Shown piece after piece: positions 1,193-15,842 of a DNA stretch of 64,000 nucleotides (its first letter is position 1; every line of letters starts with the position of its first letter). Position numbers and translations under genes: made by a program. Where the stretch lies: positions 1 through 64,000 of IMG/VR virus record IMGVR_UViG_3300048599_000194; one strand, given 5' to 3'. The stretch is from a virus. Lineage: Duplodnaviria; Heunggongvirae; Uroviricota; Caudoviricetes. The notes under the pieces were generated by a model, which ran no database searches, had not been told where the DNA came from, and was given only the letters and a program-made list of their open reading frames with translations.

Positions 1193-1452
1193 TATTCCTC
1201 CGGTGTGACACCTTCCGCTTCAACCGATTCATCATATTCAGGCTCGACATCGGTCATAATAGCAAGCTCATTTGAGTCAAGAGGTGTTACCGGAGCCTCG
1301 CCTAAATATTTGGCCTGCTCCCACATTGGCTTACCTTTTCTATTTCTAGGGACGATATACAATCCACCCTTGCGAGTTTCAATTGTATGACCTGCTATTG
1401 CAGGTTTCTTCATTTTACGAGGACGACCAACCGGATTCCACATTCCAGACAT
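1192..1452 (-). CDS. hypothetical protein with an AT-hook-like GRPRK motif
   Basis: 86 aa, basic N-terminus and acidic C-terminus, coupled start/stop on both sides. Confidence 0.65.
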   Translation of the reverse strand: MSGMWNPVGRPRKMKKPAIAGHTIETRKGGLYIVPRNRKGKPMWEQAKYLGEAPVTPLDSNELAIMTDVEPEYDESVEAEGVTPEE

Positions 1453-2084
1453 TACAATACCAGCTTTGTTGGGGTTAATTCGCTTGTCGAGGTTATTATT
1501 TTCGGAGTTTCTACGATGATCTCATTCTTTGGGGTCTCTGCAAATGCCTCATCTAGCATCTTATTAGCCGCATCCTGTCTAAGTTGCATTACCTCTGGAG
1601 ACGGCAACGCATCTTCATCATTTGCAGTTCTATTTGCAATATCTTGCAATAGATTCTGCCTACGCTCATGTTCTTTTCGATCAGCTTCATTCTTCTCTTC
1701 AATATCTTGCCTAGCTTCACAAATTCCATCACCTAATTCTAATAACATTGAATAGTGTTTCTCGACTTCATCCTGCCAAAACTCTTCCGATTCTCCAGGA
1801 TATACTTCCTGTGCGGCAAGATATACTACATTTTGATCAAATTCTAGATATTCAATATGATTATAGTAACTATGTAAATCCTCGCCCTTGAAATTCCATA
1901 ACTTGAATGGAACTACGGGGGCGTCAAATTCATTTAATTCTCGAATAAATGAAGCGTTTCGTGTGCAGTAATAATCGAAATTATATACCACTTCCCCACT
2001 ATTCAACACTAGATATGGTAGGGTCGCATCTAAAAATTGAAGACGCTTTTCGTTGTATGGTACGCGAATTAGTTTCTTTTCCAT
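1452..2084 (-). CDS. hypothetical protein
   Basis: 210-aa ORF, GCTACAAT motif 6 nt upstream of the ATG. Confidence 0.7.
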   Translation of the reverse strand: MEKKLIRVPYNEKRLQFLDATLPYLVLNSGEVVYNFDYYCTRNASFIRELNEFDAPVVPFKLWNFKGEDLHSYYNHIEYLEFDQNVVYLAAQEVYPGESEEFWQDEVEKHYSMLLELGDGICEARQDIEEKNEADRKEHERRQNLLQDIANRTANDEDALPSPEVMQLRQDAANKMLDEAFAETPKNEIIVETPKIITSTSELTPTKLVL

Positions 2085-7701: not shown

Positions 7702-8178
7702 ATGAACCTCGAACGCTTCCCATTAGGAAATCCAGACATTGAAGTTCTTCCAGGAGAACAGAAATATCCATTCAAATTACGAAAAGATTTCGTGTATCTA
7801 TTTCCAGGGGATAAAGATTTCGCCCCTCAAACATTTGTAGCACCAGCTACATATCAAACGGATTTCTTCTCTATTCCACAAATATTATGGCCCGTTTTAT
7901 CTCCGATTGGACCTGGAATACATGGTTCTATAATCCATGACTTATTGTGCTCAACTGAATGGGGATTGCCGGGAGAATCGGTTAAAAGAAGAGTTCTACG
8001 CGCAAATAGAGTATTGCGTCAAGCAATGATTGATTCTGGGTGCCCTAAATGGAGAGTGTCTATTATATATCTAGGGGTTCAAATAGGATGTATATACACT
8101 TGGAAAGATCATAATCCAGTTGAAGTGTCTGATGATCTTCAATTAATGCTAGAAGCCACCGAAAAGTTTATTAAGTAG
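7702..8178 (+). CDS. DUF1353 family protein
   Basis: TDFFSIP..LW and IIHDLL motifs; TAAATA 6 nt upstream. Confidence 0.75.
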   Translation: MNLERFPLGNPDIEVLPGEQKYPFKLRKDFVYLFPGDKDFAPQTFVAPATYQTDFFSIPQILWPVLSPIGPGIHGSIIHDLLCSTEWGLPGESVKRRVLRANRVLRQAMIDSGCPKWRVSIIYLGVQIGCIYTWKDHNPVEVSDDLQLMLEATEKFIK

Positions 8179-9365: not shown

Positions 9366-11225
9366 TCATGCTAGATACATGTCAATAAAATCTTCAATCG
9401 ATGCCACTGGAATCCCATATTGCTGTGCCTTCTTTGTCTTATTTGACTGTAAATCCAGATCGGCTACAATTAATACTTTTGTAGTCTTTTTTACACTAGA
9501 ATCTTCTTTCCATCCCATCGAGGCAAGTCGCTTAACCTGACCGTCGGAGAATCTAGTGCCAGTAATACAGTAACTTCCAACTGTCTCAGTGATCTTCTCA
9601 TCAACAATTCTAATTTTGCCATCAATTTTCTTAAACAAATCAAGACTTCTCTTCATTTGCTCTACAATATGCTTATGAAATCCACGGATTTCCTTTAACT
9701 TTTCAATCTTAACCATATCTCCATCAACCAAATCGCGCCACACGAATCCACTTTCAGAAATGACTCTTGAGAAAGTCTTACCACATGACCTCAAATATGT
9801 TTGATATATTACTTTTGCATCTACATCACCATGAATATTTGAAAAGAAAGTTAATATTTTCTCTTTATGTGAAGAACCAACTCCTGGAATTGTTGCATAT
9901 TCAATGTCATCTAAGCTGAAGTCATATAAATCCATGACTTCAGTTATATTAAAATGCCTAAAGACCTTTCCCATGATTCCATTGGATAGTCCTTCAGGGT
10001 AGAAAAACTTAGAAAATCTCAACAACTTCGAATTCTCGATGTTCGGACATTCAGGATTTACGCAGAAGTAGTGCTCTCCGTCGGCCTCTCCGTTCGATCC
10101 ACATGCTGGGCACTTAGGGGTTAGCTTATTGTCATCAATGAGTCTAATCCCCTTGGACACCACCCGGTTGGCATGGGGCATGATCTCATTGCTTCTAATA
10201 ATCTCCACCACATGGTCCTCGTATAGAGGCCAGAAGCCCTCTCGTATGGCGATTCCGAAGCTACCCAGCGATGCCCTCTTGATCATTGCCCCATTCAAGT
10301 TAACTGGCTCAAGTAACAAAACAGGTGTCAATCTCTGATCAATACCGATAGTAATATCAAATCCTCTAGCTTTGGTTAGTCGCTTCTCATCTTCAAACTT
10401 AAAAGCGATTAATGAACCATTAGACTTCTTAAATACGGCACCATCTGCTTCATATGGATAAGAATCCTTAATTGCATACTTGAATCCGGCCAGATCCTTA
10501 ATTTGTTGGTTTGTATAACTTTTCTGAGTTTCTACGATAAAAGAAGAACCCCAATCAGCCTCATCGTATAAATCCGCTCCGGTTTCTACGTCTTTGTACG
10601 TGTATGCAATGAAATCAACAAATTTCATCACATCTTCCCAGCCCTCTTGCCGTGAAATTGCACCAGCGACTGCATTTCTACTCGATTTACTAACGTCAAA
10701 ACCGTTTTCTGTAGTATACGCATCCTTCCTGATAGCGGCCTCGCCTCGAACTGCAACATAAGCTCTAACTATTGCATTGCGATCCACTGGAAGTTCGTTT
10801 GGAACTATACCAATAAACTTTGCGGTGCGGTCAATTCCAATATTATGGCGACCTCTGGTTACGGCCTTCCAGAATTTTCCGTTTTTATAGTACAGAACAA
10901 TAGAATTACCATCTATTTTAGTGGAAACAGTCGGATCCTCATCATTACCTATCCAACTGATAACCTCATCTATATTTTTAATTTTTGTAATGGATCCAAC
11001 TTGAATTGGATGCTCGAATTTATCTTTTTCTTCAATTCCGCTAAATTCGTAACCATATCCAGGGGTGGTAAGTATTGGATGATTAGGATTCAAAAGCCTA
11101 AGTTCATCCTCATATGTATTAAATGTTTCATCATCAACACTAACTTCACCAGTTTCGTAGTAGTCATAGGACCACTGCTTCAACTTAGATACGATCTCTT
11201 CTTCTCTGGTCATGTTATCCTCCAT
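9366..11225 (-). CDS. ligA: NAD-dependent DNA ligase
   Basis: YY..G...VDDETF, KIDG adenylation motif, TRG, VRGE, SRNAVAG, CPAC Zn finger, C-terminal BRCT. Confidence 0.95.
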   Translation of the reverse strand: MEDNMTREEEIVSKLKQWSYDYYETGEVSVDDETFNTYEDELRLLNPNHPILTTPGYGYEFSGIEEKDKFEHPIQVGSITKIKNIDEVISWIGNDEDPTVSTKIDGNSIVLYYKNGKFWKAVTRGRHNIGIDRTAKFIGIVPNELPVDRNAIVRAYVAVRGEAAIRKDAYTTENGFDVSKSSRNAVAGAISRQEGWEDVMKFVDFIAYTYKDVETGADLYDEADWGSSFIVETQKSYTNQQIKDLAGFKYAIKDSYPYEADGAVFKKSNGSLIAFKFEDEKRLTKARGFDITIGIDQRLTPVLLLEPVNLNGAMIKRASLGSFGIAIREGFWPLYEDHVVEIIRSNEIMPHANRVVSKGIRLIDDNKLTPKCPACGSNGEADGEHYFCVNPECPNIENSKLLRFSKFFYPEGLSNGIMGKVFRHFNITEVMDLYDFSLDDIEYATIPGVGSSHKEKILTFFSNIHGDVDAKVIYQTYLRSCGKTFSRVISESGFVWRDLVDGDMVKIEKLKEIRGFHKHIVEQMKRSLDLFKKIDGKIRIVDEKITETVGSYCITGTRFSDGQVKRLASMGWKEDSSVKKTTKVLIVADLDLQSNKTKKAQQYGIPVASIEDFIDMYLA

Positions 11226-11231
11226 ACGTGA

Positions 11232-11260
11232 AGACTAATTTAGTCGTTAAATGGCGTCAA
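11232..11260 (-). promoter_or_regulatory. early sigma70-type promoter (leaderless ligA)
   Basis: TTGACG-N17-TAGTCT, ATG 6 nt downstream. Confidence 0.7.
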
Positions 11261-11297
11261 CCTTTTCTTAAAATAACATAATCTTCTAAATATTCTC

Positions 11298-11858
11298 ATG
11301 GGTGCAGGGCCAAGTCAAGAAGAATTAAATAGACTCTACGAAGAAATAGCTGAACTCCGTCAATGCAAGCAAGAACTTGCAGGATTGAGGGAATTTAAGT
11401 CTAATTCTGAAGAAAAATTCAAAGAAATTAGAGATAATATTGATAAATTATTCAGTCGAATTGAAGGTAATGGTAGAAAAGGATTGAAGGACGAGATTGC
11501 TGAAATCAAAGAACTTTTAACTAAATTTGAAGAAAATATAACTGAAGTATATGAAAGAATATCTAAAATTGAAAATCTATTAGAAAGAACAATTCACGAA
11601 GTATATGAGTTAACCCCAATTGTAAAAGCATTAATGAAGCTAGAAGATGATAGAAAGACTGAGAAAGATTCTTTCCGTCGCGAGTTTAGAATGTGGATTA
11701 TTGGATTCATTGGGTCTGTTCTATTGACTGCATCAGTGACTTGGGTTACAATTAGATCAAACTCGGCTAATAAACCAGATGTAAAAACTGTGGTCGAGAC
11801 TGTTCTAAAAGAACAAGCATCTCACGATTCACTTAGAAATCTACAATTCAAAAAATAA
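11298..11858 (+). CDS. coiled-coil protein with a C-terminal transmembrane helix (late)
   Basis: Heptad-rich N-terminus, WIIGFIGSVLLTASVTWVTI TM segment; TAAATA 5 nt upstream. Confidence 0.75.
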   Translation: MGAGPSQEELNRLYEEIAELRQCKQELAGLREFKSNSEEKFKEIRDNIDKLFSRIEGNGRKGLKDEIAEIKELLTKFEENITEVYERISKIENLLERTIHEVYELTPIVKALMKLEDDRKTEKDSFRREFRMWIIGFIGSVLLTASVTWVTIRSNSANKPDVKTVVETVLKEQASHDSLRNLQFKK

Positions 11859-11887
11859 AAGCCCCTTGCGAGGCTATATTTTATTTT
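11856..11887. terminator. intrinsic terminator between convergent genes
   Basis: AAAAGCCCC-TTGC-GAGGCT followed by T-rich sequence; imperfect stem. Confidence 0.55.
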
Positions 11888-13125
11888 CCGTGTAAGATTA
11901 GATATTCTGGAGACTTCACCTTGAAATGGTCATCTTCGTAATTGAATACGAGTCCTTCTCTAGCAACTTTCACCCCAGGAACCAATTCATCGGTTCCGTT
12001 GGAAAAATCAAGCAATTCCTGGACAGTACCGGGTAATGCAAATTTAGTAGCTACAACAGGAACATGATCAAATTCATATTTGTGGCAAAATTCAAGCATT
12101 TGTTCAAGACAGTATCTACGCATTGCGTCAATATCCCATATCTTAAAGATATAGAACATGTGAGATGGCAATTTGTAAATGTTACCCTGAATTTTACCTC
12201 CAGCGTGCTCTCCTTGGATCATTAGGTTTTTTCTAATTGCCTTAAGACGAGCTTGAATGTCGAGTTCTTTTGCCGTTTGCCAGAAACGAGAACCATCGTC
12301 AGTTACTAGATGCCTATGATGAGTACAGACTCCAAAATCATTTCTGGTACGAAGTCCAAAGAAGGTAGGTACCTTATGGTTATATACCGACATGGACTGA
12401 CCTTCAATCTTAGAAGTAACATCCCAGATTGGCTTATCTCCATATTTTTCCTTCATTCGAGTAAACACCTTTTGAATGTTTTCCTCATCAGTCTGAGATG
12501 CCATCCAAGGCTCCCACTTTCCAGTCCTATCTACGCCCTTGAAACTATCCTTAGCCTTGCGATAAACAGCGTAGCGCATAAACCGATGGTCTAAGAATTT
12601 TTCCAGCTTACCTTTCTTATTGACTACTTTTTGTTCTTCGGTGTTTACCTCTTCCTCATCCTCAACAACCTTAATAATGCCAAGAAGTTGAGTTACATCC
12701 AATCCAGCCTCTGGAATTGTACCTTCAGGTAGGATAGTTGTCGGAAAGATAATGCCCTGAGAAACAACTCCACGAATTTTCTGAGCCTTAATCCTAAATT
12801 TCTTTTGACGGAGGAACTCAAATTCAGGTTTTGTATTTTTAGAGGAAATTTCATCCATTTCCTTCTGAATTCTAATGAGATCTTCTCCAGTGGCTTTACG
12901 TGCAGTCTTTTTAAGAGCATCGTATTGGGCTTGTAGTGCAAGATCCAGTCCATCGGGAAGGATCGAATCCACTTCAATATATACAACCATGTCGCCAGAC
13001 TTGAATTCGCCCTTTTTAGTGACAACATGAAAATCAAGAACCTGAGTCATCTCAAGTCTATCTGCATCTTCAATTCCATACGTTGTAACTACACGTTCGA
13101 TGTGTGCAAGTGCTCTATCGCTCAT
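11881..13125 (-). CDS. RNA ligase, Rnl2-related DRB0094 family
   Basis: N-terminal ADRLE...VVTKKGEFKSGDMVVYIEVDSILP and RGVVSQG; KIEGQS, QGE, IQGNIY, REGLV, FKVKS motifs. Confidence 0.9.
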   Translation of the reverse strand: MSDRALAHIERVVTTYGIEDADRLEMTQVLDFHVVTKKGEFKSGDMVVYIEVDSILPDGLDLALQAQYDALKKTARKATGEDLIRIQKEMDEISSKNTKPEFEFLRQKKFRIKAQKIRGVVSQGIIFPTTILPEGTIPEAGLDVTQLLGIIKVVEDEEEVNTEEQKVVNKKGKLEKFLDHRFMRYAVYRKAKDSFKGVDRTGKWEPWMASQTDEENIQKVFTRMKEKYGDKPIWDVTSKIEGQSMSVYNHKVPTFFGLRTRNDFGVCTHHRHLVTDDGSRFWQTAKELDIQARLKAIRKNLMIQGEHAGGKIQGNIYKLPSHMFYIFKIWDIDAMRRYCLEQMLEFCHKYEFDHVPVVATKFALPGTVQELLDFSNGTDELVPGVKVAREGLVFNYEDDHFKVKSPEYLILHGK

Positions 13126-13154
13126 TATGCTATCCTTTCCATAAAGATGAAAAG

Positions 13155-13183
13155 AGAATACTAGATGTTGTCTATATTGTCAA
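13155..13183 (-). promoter_or_regulatory. early sigma70-type promoter
   Basis: TTGACA-N17-TATTCT upstream of the RNA ligase gene. Confidence 0.75.
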
Positions 13184-13188
13184 CTACA

Positions 13189-13303
13189 TGGACTTGCCGG
13201 GAGTTGAACCCGATGGAGGAGCTACCTCCGTCTCCGTAGCATTAATCTGCCAAGCGGCCCGTGAATGGACCGTATGGGAATTGAACCCATTTGCATCAAG
13301 CCC
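13189..13303 (-). ncRNA. tRNA-like RNA with two T-arm/acceptor heads (not a canonical tRNA)
   Basis: Two canonical T-arms (ATGGG-TTCAATT-CCCAT; TCGGG-TTCAACT-CCCGG), each followed by 7 nt plus discriminator A; the 5' strands GGGCTTG and GGGCCGC pair crosswise with them. Confidence 0.75.
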
Positions 13304-13313
13304 TGATCGAGTT

Positions 13314-13931
13314 TTAACTTAACATTCCAGATAAAAGCTCATTCACGAACTTCATATCAGCTTTACCCTTCAACTTAGGAGTAAGATCCTTCATTAGAGG
13401 GCCTCTCAACTTAACGGTCTTTTCTCCGCCCGCTGAAATCCTTTCAACAGCCTCAGACACTATTTCTTTGATTTGATCCTCACTCAATTGAGCAGGAAGA
13501 AATTCCTTCAATACGCTCAACTGATAAGTCTCAACCTCTACTAGGTCATTTCGATTAGCAGACCTGAATTGCGAAATGGAATCCTCCCTCTGCTTAACAC
13601 CTTTGGTTAATGCAGATAGAACATCTTCGTCATTCACTTCCTTGCGATTTTGAGAAATAGCAATTAGCTTAATATTTCCAACTAAGGTCCGAAGAACTAG
13701 AACTCGATTCGAATCCTTAGCCTTAAGCGCCTTAATTACTTCCTGATTGATTTCTTCGAATTTTTGACTCATTTTGACTGCCTCCTGTATTTCTGGACAG
13801 ACACTATTCCATCCGGCGTCGAATCTTAATGTAGAGTATTCTCCATATTCAGAAATCAAATCACTGATAATAACCTGCCACTCAAGCAGAGTAAAATCAG
13901 GATCTCCCATGATTTCTAAAATCCTGTTCAT
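13314..13931 (-). CDS. GatB/YqeY domain protein (core probably starts at ATG 13772)
   Basis: ALKAKD..RVLVLR, KQREDSISQF..ANR.DL, FLPAQLSE, KGKAD motifs; internal GGAGG SD before MSQK. Confidence 0.9.
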   Translation of the reverse strand: MNRILEIMGDPDFTLLEWQVIISDLISEYGEYSTLRFDAGWNSVCPEIQEAVKMSQKFEEINQEVIKALKAKDSNRVLVLRTLVGNIKLIAISQNRKEVNDEDVLSALTKGVKQREDSISQFRSANRNDLVEVETYQLSVLKEFLPAQLSEDQIKEIVSEAVERISAGGEKTVKLRGPLMKDLTPKLKGKADMKFVNELLSGMLS

Positions 13932-13933
13932 TT

Positions 13934-14029
13934 TTAATGGCGAAGCAATGCAGGGATTGCCACACTAGCAACAATCCCAACGATCACAACGAGAACCATT
14001 AATTCTACTAGCGTAAATCCTTTTCTCAT
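13934..14029 (-). CDS. 31-aa type IV prepilin-like peptide (N-terminal methylation motif only)
   Basis: MRKG|FTLVELMVLVVIVGIVASVAIPALLRH; AAGGAG SD; fills the intergenic gap exactly; below the ORF-track size cutoff. Confidence 0.85.
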   Translation of the reverse strand: MRKGFTLVELMVLVVIVGIVASVAIPALLRH

Positions 14030-14038
14030 TCTATCTCC

Positions 14039-15253
14039 TTATATGGTGAACCCAGACTTCCAAAGATCTTCGAACTTAGTCCAATTCTTTGAATTATTTC
14101 GTCCAATTAAAAGCCATTCGGTAAATGTTGGAGAATTTTCGTCAATGTACCGCTGGAACAGATATGCAGTGAATCGCTTCAATTCGACCTGCTCATTAAC
14201 CTTAATAGCGTATGACTTTCTATCGATGTTTCTAATATCCACCGAAGCAATGAAAAATTCAATTTTAGAATTGATTTCTGCAATCTTATTCTTCAATGAT
14301 TCAATTGCATTCTTCTGAACAATAGTAAGATCAGAATAAAAATCATCAATAATTCCAGAAAAAAACATATCTAGAAGATTGTTTACAGTATGGCCCTTAT
14401 CTCCACCACCGATTAGACGATGAAGAACCAAATATCTCTGATTCTTTAGCTTCCCTAGTGGTTCAGGATTTGAAAGAACGAATCCTTCCGCATTCTGTCC
14501 ATATCTTTCATTAGATGATTCTTCCTCAACATACGCCTCAAGAGCCTCTAACGTCTTTTCTGCAAGGGGTAGATCAGACACCTTTAGTCGATATGGGCGA
14601 CGCTCCCCAAAGTCCTCAGACGCCACTCTGTCTAGTTCAGCGGTGGACATGTACTCCCCAGTGGATACCTTTCTCGCAAGAAGCAAGAATATCGTATCTT
14701 CTGGATACTGAGTGACAATGATGTTATATGCAGAACAAAGTTCATGAAAGTAGCAGTATTCGGTGTTGGCCTTTTTAAGGTTTTCAACGCCAAACAACTT
14801 CAGAAAAAGATCAGAAAATGTAAACTTATAGTCCCCTATGTTACATGGCTTAATCTTTCCTAGAGTGGAAATTCTCCATTCTCCCTTCCAGAAATACATC
14901 TGAATTGCGCTACCATCTGCCTTCTGAACAATTTCAAGAGAATCAAAGTCTTCAATGAACTTAGCCTTTGACGAATAAGGGCAATGCCCTTCCCTCAGAT
15001 TGAAAAACTTCGCAGGTGGCCTGGATACATACATCCATGATCCATCTGCAAGACGGGCCATGACTGTTCCACGACATTCAAATGTAATGGCATTCCACTT
15101 CACCATAATCATGTCATACTTGAAGAGATACAAATCATCTTCAATATCAACCATCACGCCAAAATCATTATTAAACAATGTCTTCACATCCTCAGCGGAT
15201 GCCCCTGAATCCTTCCCGAACATCTCATTCAGGAATTCCAATAGTGCTGACAT
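14039..15253 (-). CDS. RNA ligase 1 (T4 Rnl1-like)
   Basis: FKY, ECRG, KFFN, KADGS (motif I), HELCS, EGFV, KLKN motifs. Confidence 0.9.
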   Translation of the reverse strand: MSALLEFLNEMFGKDSGASAEDVKTLFNNDFGVMVDIEDDLYLFKYDMIMVKWNAITFECRGTVMARLADGSWMYVSRPPAKFFNLREGHCPYSSKAKFIEDFDSLEIVQKADGSAIQMYFWKGEWRISTLGKIKPCNIGDYKFTFSDLFLKLFGVENLKKANTEYCYFHELCSAYNIIVTQYPEDTIFLLLARKVSTGEYMSTAELDRVASEDFGERRPYRLKVSDLPLAEKTLEALEAYVEEESSNERYGQNAEGFVLSNPEPLGKLKNQRYLVLHRLIGGGDKGHTVNNLLDMFFSGIIDDFYSDLTIVQKNAIESLKNKIAEINSKIEFFIASVDIRNIDRKSYAIKVNEQVELKRFTAYLFQRYIDENSPTFTEWLLIGRNNSKNWTKFEDLWKSGFTI

Positions 15254-15275
15254 AGTGTACCTCCTTTCACATTAG

Positions 15276-15304
15276 AAGATACTGTACATATCCTTATACG
15301 TCAA
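15276..15304 (-). promoter_or_regulatory. early sigma70-type promoter
   Basis: TTGACG-N17-TATCTT followed by GGAGG SD and the Rnl1 start. Confidence 0.8.
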
Positions 15305-15842
15305 CTAGAAGTTTTAAGTTCTCATCCGAGAATAGTTCTTTTTGCCGCTTAGACACCATACTCTTTGCAGTTTCCCAATCAACCCACAAAAATGCATCAT
15401 TTTCAGGAAGATCTTTCCCATCTATTCTAGATGTGCATTTTAGTGAATACTTAGAAATATCAATCAAACAATCAACATAGTACGCATATACCATTTTTTT
15501 AGTTGTCTTATATCTGAATAGAATCTCACTATGAATCTTAACAATACCCTTATCAGATAATGATCTAAAATTCAACCCAGTCTCTTCGATGGATTCTCTA
15601 AATGCAGTATCCAACAGTGAATCGGCATCTTCAACAATTCCTTTCGGAATACCCCAATGTCCATCGCTCCTAGAAAAACTACCGTTAAACTGAGTTGCAT
15701 GACAAAGTAAATATTTACCAAAATTATGAATTAAGAATCCTGCAGACTTCACTGTTGTATTTATTTTTGAATTATTAAATTCCAACATCGAAATCATACC
15801 CCTCGACCATTTCAGATGCAGGTACGATTGGACGAGGTCCAA
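15294..15842 (-). CDS. Nudix hydrolase (start probably ~15788-15797)
   Basis: SAG, WGIPKG...TAFRESIEETG Nudix box. Confidence 0.85.
   Translation of the reverse strand: MDLVQSYLHLKWSRGMISMLEFNNSKINTTVKSAGFLIHNFGKYLLCHATQFNGSFSRSDGHWGIPKGIVEDADSLLDTAFRESIEETGLNFRSLSDKGIVKIHSEILFRYKTTKKMVYAYYVDCLIDISKYSLKCTSRIDGKDLPENDAFLWVDWETAKSMVSKRQKELFSDENLKLLVDV

Follow-up and report, generated by a model that had tools for sequence, protein, structure and literature searches.

Can a single phage RNA carry two tRNA-type acceptor ends, and, if it does, how would it be processed and what could it do? The question was raised by a 115-nt RNA gene on the minus strand, at positions 13189-13303, of the window, i.e. 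the whole stretch of DNA analysed, which consisted of the first 64 kb (64,000 nt) of the 306,252-bp virus record IMGVR_UViG_3300048599_000194 (Caudoviricetes) with direct terminal repeats. Viruses make repeated use of tRNA mimicry, as does bacterial quality control, and to our knowledge every described tRNA mimic has one acceptor end. A first-pass annotation, made from the letters of the sequence, had read this element as two acceptor/T-arm domains formed by crosswise pairing, both with alanine identity. The crosswise two-head architecture was borne out by covariation across 12 variants. The whole RNA is a strand-swapped pair of minihelices, in which every 3' acceptor strand adjoins the T-arm of its own unit without a break and every 5' strand comes from the other unit. 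The two-headed RNA family has so far been seen only in uncultivated phages.

Sequence and predicted fold of the element

Read on the minus strand from 13303 to 13189, the element consisted of a 7-nt 5' strand, the 6-nt joiner AUGCAA, T-arm 1 and a 7-nt 3' strand followed by A; after this first A came the linker UUCAC, a second 7-nt 5' strand, 40 nt of further sequence, T-arm 2 and a final 7-nt 3' strand followed by A (Table 1). The sequence given for this interval in the first-pass annotation matched the actual letters, and a recount reproduced its numbers of pairs: the acceptor strands paired at 5/7 and 4/7 positions within the units, and at 7/7 and 6/7 positions across them. Because both heads have GGGC/GTCC in common, only pairs 5-7 discriminate between the two schemes. 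At these pairs the crosswise scheme formed 5/6 pairs and the within-unit scheme 1/6 (about p = 0.03), and the case for crosswise pairing from the window sequence alone was modest.

The minimum-free-energy fold was exactly the crosswise structure, with 33 pairs without mismatch, an energy of -46.9 kcal/mol and z = -3.67; none of 200 shuffled sequences was as stable. The outer 7-bp helix of this fold enclosed five hairpins, with T-arm 1 first and T-arm 2 last; between them came, in order, the inner acceptor-type helix, a hairpin like a D-arm and hairpin 4, which is GC-rich. The inner helix had 6 bp and was capped in the window by the 5-nt linker. A 7+5 bp acceptor/T-stem with a UUCRANY loop and a discriminator base was thus present twice, the inner helix having 6 pairs and a 7:66 mismatch.

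As the first-pass annotation had expected, no full tRNA or transfer-messenger RNA (tmRNA) was called: ARAGORN found 0 tRNA/tmRNA genes in the window, and no match of Rfam 15 to the element reached the gathering score. At E<=10 over 301 bases, both T-arms were matched as tmRNA fragments of 9-10 bits (threshold 47), together with a weak 18-bit match to mascRNA. The element was without an anticodon arm, and the loops of 5 and 6 nt in the fold compared with the 7-nt anticodon loop of the cloverleaf.

Homologues of the element

Four degenerate patterns, each leaving different parts of the element free, were scanned over viral (IMG/VR) and metagenome contigs. The yield was 13 contigs from IMG/VR and 25 from metagenomes, with several of the latter being the same records. 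These homologues collapsed to 11 distinct sequences, or 12 with the window copy, with lengths of 115-126 nt, a mutual identity of 54-96% and an identity to the window copy of 58-74%. The loop of T-arm 1 was forced by the search patterns, the AUGC motif of the joiner was forced in 2/4 of them and the motif GCUAYGGNGAC in 3/4, while T-arm 2 was left unforced in most scans. The scan in which GTCC/GGGC was not forced gave 13 contigs, all of which carried both; the scan in which GCUAYGGNGAC was not forced gave the same 13 contigs, all carrying the motif. The first pattern, with TCCA required at both ends, found 2 loci, both ordinary tandem tRNAs.

The single-sequence covariance model R1 matched the 11 other variants over their full length at 51-81 bits. 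Model R2, built from the 12 variants, found one copy only in this phage; it is a clean annotation tool, as members scored 98-125 bits (at least 98) and tandem tRNA genes no more than 36 bits. In BLAST searches with the window region, the element and three other variants, the 50,697 GenBank phage records yielded matches of T-arm length or none at all. The element is best read as a conserved phage non-coding RNA of a family that Rfam lacks.

The lead to the family was a 1320-nt contig of another, more abundant organism, which matched the 3' half of the element (13188-13240) with 7 mismatches. Upstream of the match this contig had a 3' strand, C, a 5-nt spacer and a GGGC strand, and downstream it had a ribosome-binding site and ATG. 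On this sequence it is probably a 13th, partial member with inner discriminator C. Patterns modelled on it found nothing in viral and metagenome contigs, and one chance match in a bacterial coding region.

Covariation and test of the crosswise pairing

In the 12-row alignment, which was fitted to the model, 94.9% of cells were in standard pairs and 22/33 pairs were changed on both sides, and 0/500 shuffles reached any of five measures. When the partners were slid by 1-3 columns, pairing fell to 38-52% of cells. Changes on both sides were found in 5/7 pairs of the outer helix, 3/5 of T-arm 1, 2/6 of the inner helix (the four others being invariant), 5/5 of hairpin 4 and 5/5 of T-arm 2, the last of which was paired in 100% of cells. 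The D-like helices 4 and 5, paired in 89% and 75% of cells, showed little covariation and weak support in the family.

The same helices were obtained without fitting to a structure. From a MAFFT alignment, RNAalifold gave the outer helix, T-arm 1, the inner helix, hairpin 4 and T-arm 2, with 17/25 pairs compensatory. The two pairing schemes were compared in an 11-row alignment (A3). The crosswise acceptor helices were paired in 92.2% of cells with a covariation score of 0.455, and 0/500 shuffles scored as high. The within-unit helices were paired in 64.9% of cells against a shuffle mean of 64.7%, with 268/500 shuffles as high; at each of the within-unit positions 5-7, 6-9 of the 11 sequences were unpaired. 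Two decaying tRNA genes, the alternative that the first-pass annotation had set against its own reading, were rejected, since within-unit pairing was at the level of chance and the crosswise stems covaried. The crosswise two-head architecture is regarded as almost certain.

Conserved bases, alanine identity and the loop of hairpin 4

The inner head had G1-C72, G2-C71, G3.U70, C4-G69 and A73 in 12/12 variants, and its pairs 5 and 6 covaried; its 3' strand read GUCC followed by A in 12/12. Position 7:66 of the inner helix was unpaired in 10/11 variants and, by eye, also in the variant of locus L096. The outer head had G1-C72 and G7-C66 in 12/12 variants, G3.U70 in 8/12 and A73 in 9/12. The exceptions were two variants with G1-C72, C2-G71, C3-G70 and U73, and one with U3-A70 and G73. 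The alanine identity claimed for both heads therefore stood for the window copy and for the inner head throughout the family, and did not extend to the outer head of every variant.

Outside the acceptor strands, the joiner after the outer 5' strand had A in the first and C in the fourth position in 12/12 variants, with U and G between them in 11/12. The GG following the inner 5' strand was conserved, the A before T-arm 2 was invariant, and GCUAYGGNGAC was invariant in 12/12 save for Y and N. A T-box-like pairing of YGGN in this motif with NCCA was considered and rejected: N was A in 4, C in 5 and U in 3 variants while the inner discriminator was constantly A, and there was no covariation.

The loop of hairpin 4 held a 4-nt palindrome in 11/12 variants (AGCU in 2, GAUC in 5, CGCG in 3, one of them also with GCGC, and ACGU in 1). 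Shuffled sequences had a mean of 3.9/12 and 0/10000 reached 11, a count that is inflated by the kinship of the sequences. Self-complementarity was kept while the letters changed, and a loop-loop contact of two copies would yield such a pattern; the palindromic loop may thus form a kissing contact between two copies of the RNA. As a separate observation, U preceded the palindrome in 7/12 variants, so that the loop showed UAG or UGA; this was not conserved in the CGCG and ACGU types.

Context in tRNA arrays and encoded CCA

Ten of the 11 other variants were located within phage tRNA arrays; they shared the strand of the tRNA genes and in many cases lay 3-16 nt past one. At nine CCA-style loci, CCA was encoded in 7/7, 3/3, 5/5, 12/14, 14/14, 14/15, 2/3, 6/8 and 30/33 of the tRNA genes. 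The other contexts were L072 (0/2), this phage (1/42) and the phage of a variant designated group B, which had no tRNA gene. CCA followed the outer discriminator at 8/9 CCA-style loci (the ninth, L078, being ambiguous) and in 0/3 of the other contexts; it followed the inner discriminator, within the loop, at 7/9 and 0/3, respectively. Because only 1/42 tRNA genes of this phage encode CCA after the discriminator, the missing CCA of the window element is the rule of this genome and not an oddity. An open reading frame (ORF) for a CCA-adding enzyme was present in the phage. The loop closing the inner helix was 4-13 nt long (4-5 nt in the window and group B), A/U-rich, and resembled inter-tRNA spacers. 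The tracking of the inner CCA with the CCA style of the neighbouring tRNA genes is the best argument at hand that the inner strand is a real 3' terminus, and it suggests that the transcript is cut in the loop; on this pattern, two tRNA-type 3' ends are likely made. No tRNA call was made on the element, and no Rfam family overlapped it, at any of the 11 homologous loci.

The group B variant recurred as an identical 117-nt sequence at 13 loci, not all of them separate records; the flanks varied in the 10 loci that were compared. Its host was a 60.8-kb phage rated 100% complete, in which the element lay among helicase, primase and unknown genes. Between the sister variants of L062 and L054, 4.2% of sites differed in the element and about 22% in the flanks; the five differences within the element fell in loops or kept pairing. 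Since the group B phage has no tRNA gene and the element diverges less than its flanks, the RNA is, judged by these comparisons, kept for its own sake and not debris of tRNA arrays. In contigs of 4 DNA runs of related strains the element was identical and 5 flanking positions differed, and an RNA-library contig had two further differences just upstream of the element. Over these 4 DNA runs and the RNA-library contigs of 4 runs there was no change inside the element, the changes being too few to probe pairing.

Several other RNAs were observed at these and other loci. A GOLLD RNA (198 bits) lay at 2254-2718 of L083, inside the tRNA array that holds the element, and a skipping-rope RNA (38.7 bits, just above threshold) adjoined the element at 1108-1217 of L078. 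At L073 1908-1995 (+), L071 5504-5591 (-) and L062 6297-6384 (-), an RNA of 88 nt was found that combines a T-arm and A73 with a 7-bp helix of the acceptor type. Conserved between arrays with the two-headed RNA, where it occurs in two versions, it received no call from ARAGORN or Rfam and represents a second unclassified tRNA-like RNA. The array of the element at L073 also had, at 7980-8055 (+), an ARAGORN tRNA with anticodon CUA (labelled tRNA-Pyl), a possible amber suppressor, and L096 had two tRNA calls with irregular anticodon loops. At L034, around 1414-1524 (-), a 72-nt unit followed a class II tRNA and had a 7-bp acceptor helix with G3.U70, A73, CCA, a T-arm and a tmRNA-like 5' part. 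This unit had no reading frame and resembled a one-piece mini tmRNA of the kind of mycobacteriophage DS6A, made of the tRNA-like domain (TLD) only; R2 scored it at 36 bits, so that it lies outside the family.

Genomic setting in this phage

In the window, the element lay in a minus-strand cluster at 9366-15842 with genes for a Nudix hydrolase, a T4 Rnl1-like RNA ligase, a YqeY-domain protein, an OB-domain RNA ligase and an NAD-dependent DNA ligase; the element and then a promoter-like site followed yqeY and preceded the OB-domain ligase gene (Table 1). The YqeY-domain protein had a 58-aa N-terminal extension. No terminator-like site was found between yqeY and the element, nor between the element and the downstream promoter. 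A mechanically called 72-aa ORF with a GTG start (13104-13322, +) spanned the entire element on the opposite strand; it is unlikely to be a gene, because the element shows RNA covariation.

Table 1. Features of the two-headed element and its immediate neighbours in the window
Feature	Position	Strand	Remarks
RNA ligase with N-terminal OB domain, 414 aa	11881..13125	-	Pfam PHA02142 OB-fold and RNA_ligase; phrog_968
Promoter-like TTGACA-17-TATTCT	13155..13183	-	10/12 matches; begins 6 nt past the element; would serve the RNA ligase gene
Outer 3' acceptor strand (nt 108-114) and discriminator A (13189)	13189..13196	-	no CCA after the discriminator in the window copy
T-arm 2, nt 91-107	13197..13213	-	loop UUCAACU; preceded by the invariant A (13214)
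Hairpin 4, nt 75-89	13215..13229	-	loop holds self-complementary AGCU
Motif GCUAYGGNGAC, nt 64-74	13230..13240	-	conserved across variants
D-arm-like region, nt 51-67	13237..13253	-	hairpin UGGCA/UGCUA in the window sequence
Inner 5' acceptor strand, nt 44-50	13254..13260	-	G1-C72, G2-C71, G3.U70, C4-G69 with 13267-13273
Linker UUCAC, nt 39-43	13261..13265	-	closes the inner helix; putatively removed
Inner 3' acceptor strand (nt 31-37) and discriminator A (nt 38, 13266)	13266..13273	-	predicted 3' end of piece 1
T-arm 1, nt 14-30	13274..13290	-	5-bp stem, loop UUCAAUU
Joiner AUGCAA, nt 8-13	13291..13296	-	occupies the place of the tRNA variable loop for the inner head
Outer 5' acceptor-type strand, nt 1-7	13297..13303	-	pairs 7/7 with 13190-13196; outer helix paired in 97.6% of cells
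YqeY-domain protein gene, 205 aa	13314..13931	-	Pfam YqeY, E 7e-38; stop codon 10 nt upstream of the element

Besides 42 tRNA genes, the phage had a full tmRNA with the tag AEESYSYALAA; both were at record positions 281-297 kb, and the element sat away from this array. Together with the ORF of the CCA-adding enzyme, these features occupied 281348-296896 and 302785-303183, outside the window. No similarity of the element to the 42 tRNAs or the tmRNA was found beyond the T-loops, and descent from the phage's own tRNAs was rejected on this ground. Genes for SmpB and alanyl-tRNA synthetase (AlaRS) were not found in the phage, nor were genes for Ro (TROVE) and RtcB in its 306 kb.

Homologues of the element had been sought downstream of yqeY at the suggestion of the first-pass annotation, and this expectation was not supported. 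The three closest YqeY relatives (68-70% identity) had yqeY, the promoter and the ligase without the element, and model R1 found no element in five yqeY/ligase-related viral records; the comparison took in 6 YqeY-related and 5 ligase-related viral loci. In 22 other loci, 0 homologues of YqeY, RNA ligase, DNA ligase or Nudix were found within about 4 kb of the element. As the neighbourhood was unshared by these 22 loci, a tie of the element to RNA repair was rejected.

Proposed processing and function

In the processing that we propose, RNase P would act at two sites, just before nt 1 (13303) and just before the inner G1 (13260), and the ends at 13266 and 13189 would be completed by 3' trimming and by the CCA-adding enzyme of the phage. 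The products would be two base-paired pieces of 38 and 72 nt before CCA, each receiving a CCA end. Such two-piece processing, predicted from the sequence comparisons, is considered probable. AlaRS would charge at least the inner head with alanine. Such charging is predicted because G3.U70 works in a bare minihelix and because bacterial alanine identity consists of G3.U70 together with A73 and G2-C71; for the inner head it is put as only slightly less probable than the processing.

The RNA cannot decode or tag, because it has no anticodon loop and no reading frame. A tmRNA-like tag frame was rejected, as no alignment column had a stop codon in more than 6/12 variants; in L089 and L055 all frames of the second piece were free of stops, and in L078 there was none ahead of the last codons. 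As its most likely function we favour that of a message-less mimic of the tmRNA type, which would engage AlaRS, possibly EF-Tu, SmpB and stalled ribosomes, and would compete with or bypass host trans-translation. It may also dimerise via the palindromic loop of hairpin 4. A tmRNA-like role in translation or ribosome rescue is our best guess, with the balance somewhat on the side of doubt. Taken as a whole, the account of a conserved two-headed RNA that tRNA enzymes cut into two CCA-ended pieces, with an alanine-charged inner head, and that serves as a tmRNA-type mimic, is one that we favour by a little.

A bolder form of this account would make the RNA a bivalent aminoacyl carrier, in which two domain-swapped pieces with two charged CCA ends, doubled by the kissing loop of hairpin 4, act on ribosomes or on tmRNA-SmpB. 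Alanine would sit on the inner head; the outer head, which varies, would bear alanine too or, in certain phages, perhaps a different amino acid. Such a carrier would be capable of things beyond a tRNA or tmRNA with a single head: it could fill two tRNA-binding sites or two synthetase subunits, or could feed two aminoacyl groups to one reaction. This form is put forward tentatively and is thought less likely than the tmRNA-like role itself.

Several observations weigh against the account of a charged, two-piece tmRNA-type mimic. The family is small, with 12 distinct variants of which some are close kin, and the 'invariance' of T-loop 1, GTCC/GGGC, AUGC and GCUAYGGNGAC has to be read with the search patterns in mind, which imposed these parts, each of them being unforced in one scan or more. 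The inner helix has 6 bp and the 7:66 mismatch, while a 7-bp stem is credited with RNase P cleavage in YrlA, and its loop in the window has only 5 nt. The variants of L089 and L096 are without inner CCA though their arrays encode CCA. The outer head is not alanine-like in 4/12 variants. The permuted-tmRNA models of Rfam matched only the inner junction of the family, with scores of 13-23 bits where the thresholds are 47-84. A role against trans-translation is not obvious, given that the phage encodes a full tmRNA of its own and has genes for neither SmpB nor AlaRS. The only RNA-library support was one metatranscriptome contig, 13221-13446, bridging the boundary of yqeY and the element; it fits an uncut precursor or DNA carry-over and gives nothing on the RNA ends.

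Some of these points are shared by the strongest alternative, a one-piece tRNA mimic in which the inner helix stays closed by its loop, as it does in most YrlA RNAs, and merely copies the structure of an acceptor arm, while the outer end alone would be free and bear CCA, the RNA serving as a protein scaffold or a decoy. The short inner stem with its mismatch in 10/11 variants, the loop of 4-5 nt in the window and group B, and the absence of inner CCA at L089 and L096 would all fit an uncut inner arm, and RNase P cleavage is given as undetected for YrlA of S. Typhimurium and Yrn1 of D. radiodurans in the part of the YrlA study that deals with it (PMC4201824). On the other hand, ACCA stands directly after the inner 3' strand in 7/12 variants and follows the CCA style of the neighbouring tRNA genes, the inner loops resemble inter-tRNA spacers, and G3.U70 and A73 of the inner head, kept in 12/12, would be needless for a purely structural arm. 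We regard the one-piece form as unlikely, and still as the competitor to be taken most seriously.

An anti-defence decoy or sponge would offer the two heads, whether charged with alanine or not, to host nucleases that hit acceptor ends or elbows, or to host tRNA enzymes, and would spare the phage tRNAs. The element accompanies phage tRNA arrays, for which a part in countering tRNA-targeting defences has been proposed; in the phage of the window it sits within an RNA-repair cluster (Rnl1-like ligase, YqeY and OB-fold RNA ligase), and nucleases cutting tRNA 3' tails are described (PMC12851939, in part). However, the RNA has no anticodon loop and hence no bait for anticodon nucleases, the RNA-ligase neighbourhood is not conserved (0 matches within about 4 kb in the 22 other loci), no link to any defence system was seen, and the strict alanine identity suggests AlaRS rather than a nuclease as partner. 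A decoy is therefore judged improbable.

Still poorer is the fit of a cis-acting processing or stability element of the yqeY/RNA-ligase transcript, a tRNA-like structure at which RNase P would cut off or terminate the upstream message, in the manner of tRNA-like elements at the 3' ends of other transcripts. The element begins 10 nt past the yqeY stop with no terminator-like site after it, the RNA-library contig runs from yqeY into it, and its weak best Rfam match is mascRNA. Yet the closest yqeY-ligase relatives do without the element, in other phages members of the family are found within tRNA arrays or amid replication genes, and one helix would suffice for such a purpose, while all six helices and both CCA sites are conserved; we consider this explanation very improbable. 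A functionless relic of two rearranged or decaying tandem tRNA genes, to which the T-loop spacing, as in tandem tRNA genes with a 5-nt spacer, and the absence of the element from the nearest phage relatives might point, is given almost no credit, because all 33 pairs are intact in the window, 12 variants keep the crosswise fold by compensatory changes with within-unit pairing at chance, the element diverges less than its flanks and is present in a complete phage without tRNA genes, and the identity of the homologues to the window copy excludes recent copying of one sequence.

Comparison with known RNAs

The first-pass annotation had recognised no described family with this architecture, and this held against Rfam 15 and full-text literature searches. 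No RNA with two acceptor/T-arm heads was found in Rfam 15, in the literature or in the 50,697 GenBank phage records, with the limit that supplements of the tmRNA database may list related 'no CDS' forms.

The heads themselves are closest to tRNA-Ala and the alanine minihelix, each being a 7+5 bp stack of acceptor helix and T-arm that has a canonical T-loop together with G3.U70 and A73. Unlike tRNA-Ala, the element has no anticodon arm, its acceptor strands come from different units, and the inner head has C4-G69 instead of G4-C69. The tRNA model RF00005 gave no match at the gathering score or at E<=10. Francklyn and Schimmel (1989) reportedly found that minihelices with G3.U70 are charged by AlaRS. 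The bacterial alanine identity elements are A73, G2-C71 and G3.U70, according to the relevant part of PMC9976931.

T4 species 1 RNA (rnaC), which we take to be an anticodon-less small stable RNA beside phage tRNA genes with an acceptor-like closing helix, and the skipping-rope RNAs differ from the element in having neither two T-arms nor two CCA sites. The models of skipping-rope (RF02924), DUF2693-FD (RF02926) and salivarius-1 (RF03030) gave no match on the element (E<=10) or in the 11 loci (gathering score).

The two-piece permuted tmRNA of alpha- and beta-proteobacteria and cyanobacteria (RF01849-RF01851, RF04321) has the same order of T-arm, 3' strand, (CCA), short stretch and 5' strand. 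Its transcripts are described as cut by tRNA-processing enzymes into two paired pieces (PMC11915505, in part). G3.U70 and A73 in this permuted order are shared (12/12 in the inner head), and in both RNAs the 5' and 3' ends of the transcript pair. The element differs from permuted tmRNA in having no tag frame or pseudoknots, in its length of 115 nt compared with some 300, and in a closing helix that forms a second acceptor/T-arm head with its own CCA. The best scores of the family were 20.5 for beta_tmRNA (threshold 84) and 22.8 for tmRNA_permuted (threshold 47), the latter on a stretch mostly covering a neighbouring tRNA.

tmRNA forms without a reading frame are also on record. The parts of PMC11915505 and PMC4131195 that treat them list 72 'permuted, no CDS' tmRNA sequences, mostly mitochondrial, and a TLD-only form in mycobacteriophage DS6A, and state that a similar TLD-only molecule inhibits tmRNA, perhaps by titrating SmpB. 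The element resembles mitochondrial tmRNA (RF02544, usually permuted) and the DS6A form in having an alanine-type domain without an mRNA part, and one of these is phage-encoded. Those forms are single-headed, in contrast to the element, and neither RF02544 nor RF00023 had a match in the window or the 11 loci.

In YrlA, a T stem-loop, a capped acceptor-like stem-loop and a D-like stem-loop lie in this order inside a terminal helix. The layout of the element resembles this order: its T-arm and capped acceptor helix are backed by covariation, and the D-like helix is poorly supported in the family. In the portion of PMC4201824 concerned with processing, RNase P cuts the capped acceptor loop of M. 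smegmatis YrlA, CCA is added in vivo, and the cleavage is ascribed to a 7-bp stem; some YrlA forms are given there as phage-encoded and some as lying in RNA-repair operons. The Ro-binding motif GNCGAAN0-1G was not found near the 5' end in 12/12 variants by regular-expression search, which gave two incidental internal matches. Further differences from YrlA are the closing helix, which in the element is an acceptor-type head with a second T-arm, and the strictly kept alanine identity. Identity with YrlA was rejected, as there was no Ro-binding motif and no Ro or RtcB gene in the phage.

The second T-arm, which turns the terminal helix into an acceptor head with its own CCA, is absent from permuted tmRNA, from the frame-less forms and from YrlA. 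If both ends are made and charged, the element would be the first natural RNA with two aminoacyl ends, and, if the account holds, it would be a new member of the tRNA-array toolkit of large phages, beside tmRNA, GOLLD and skipping-rope RNAs.

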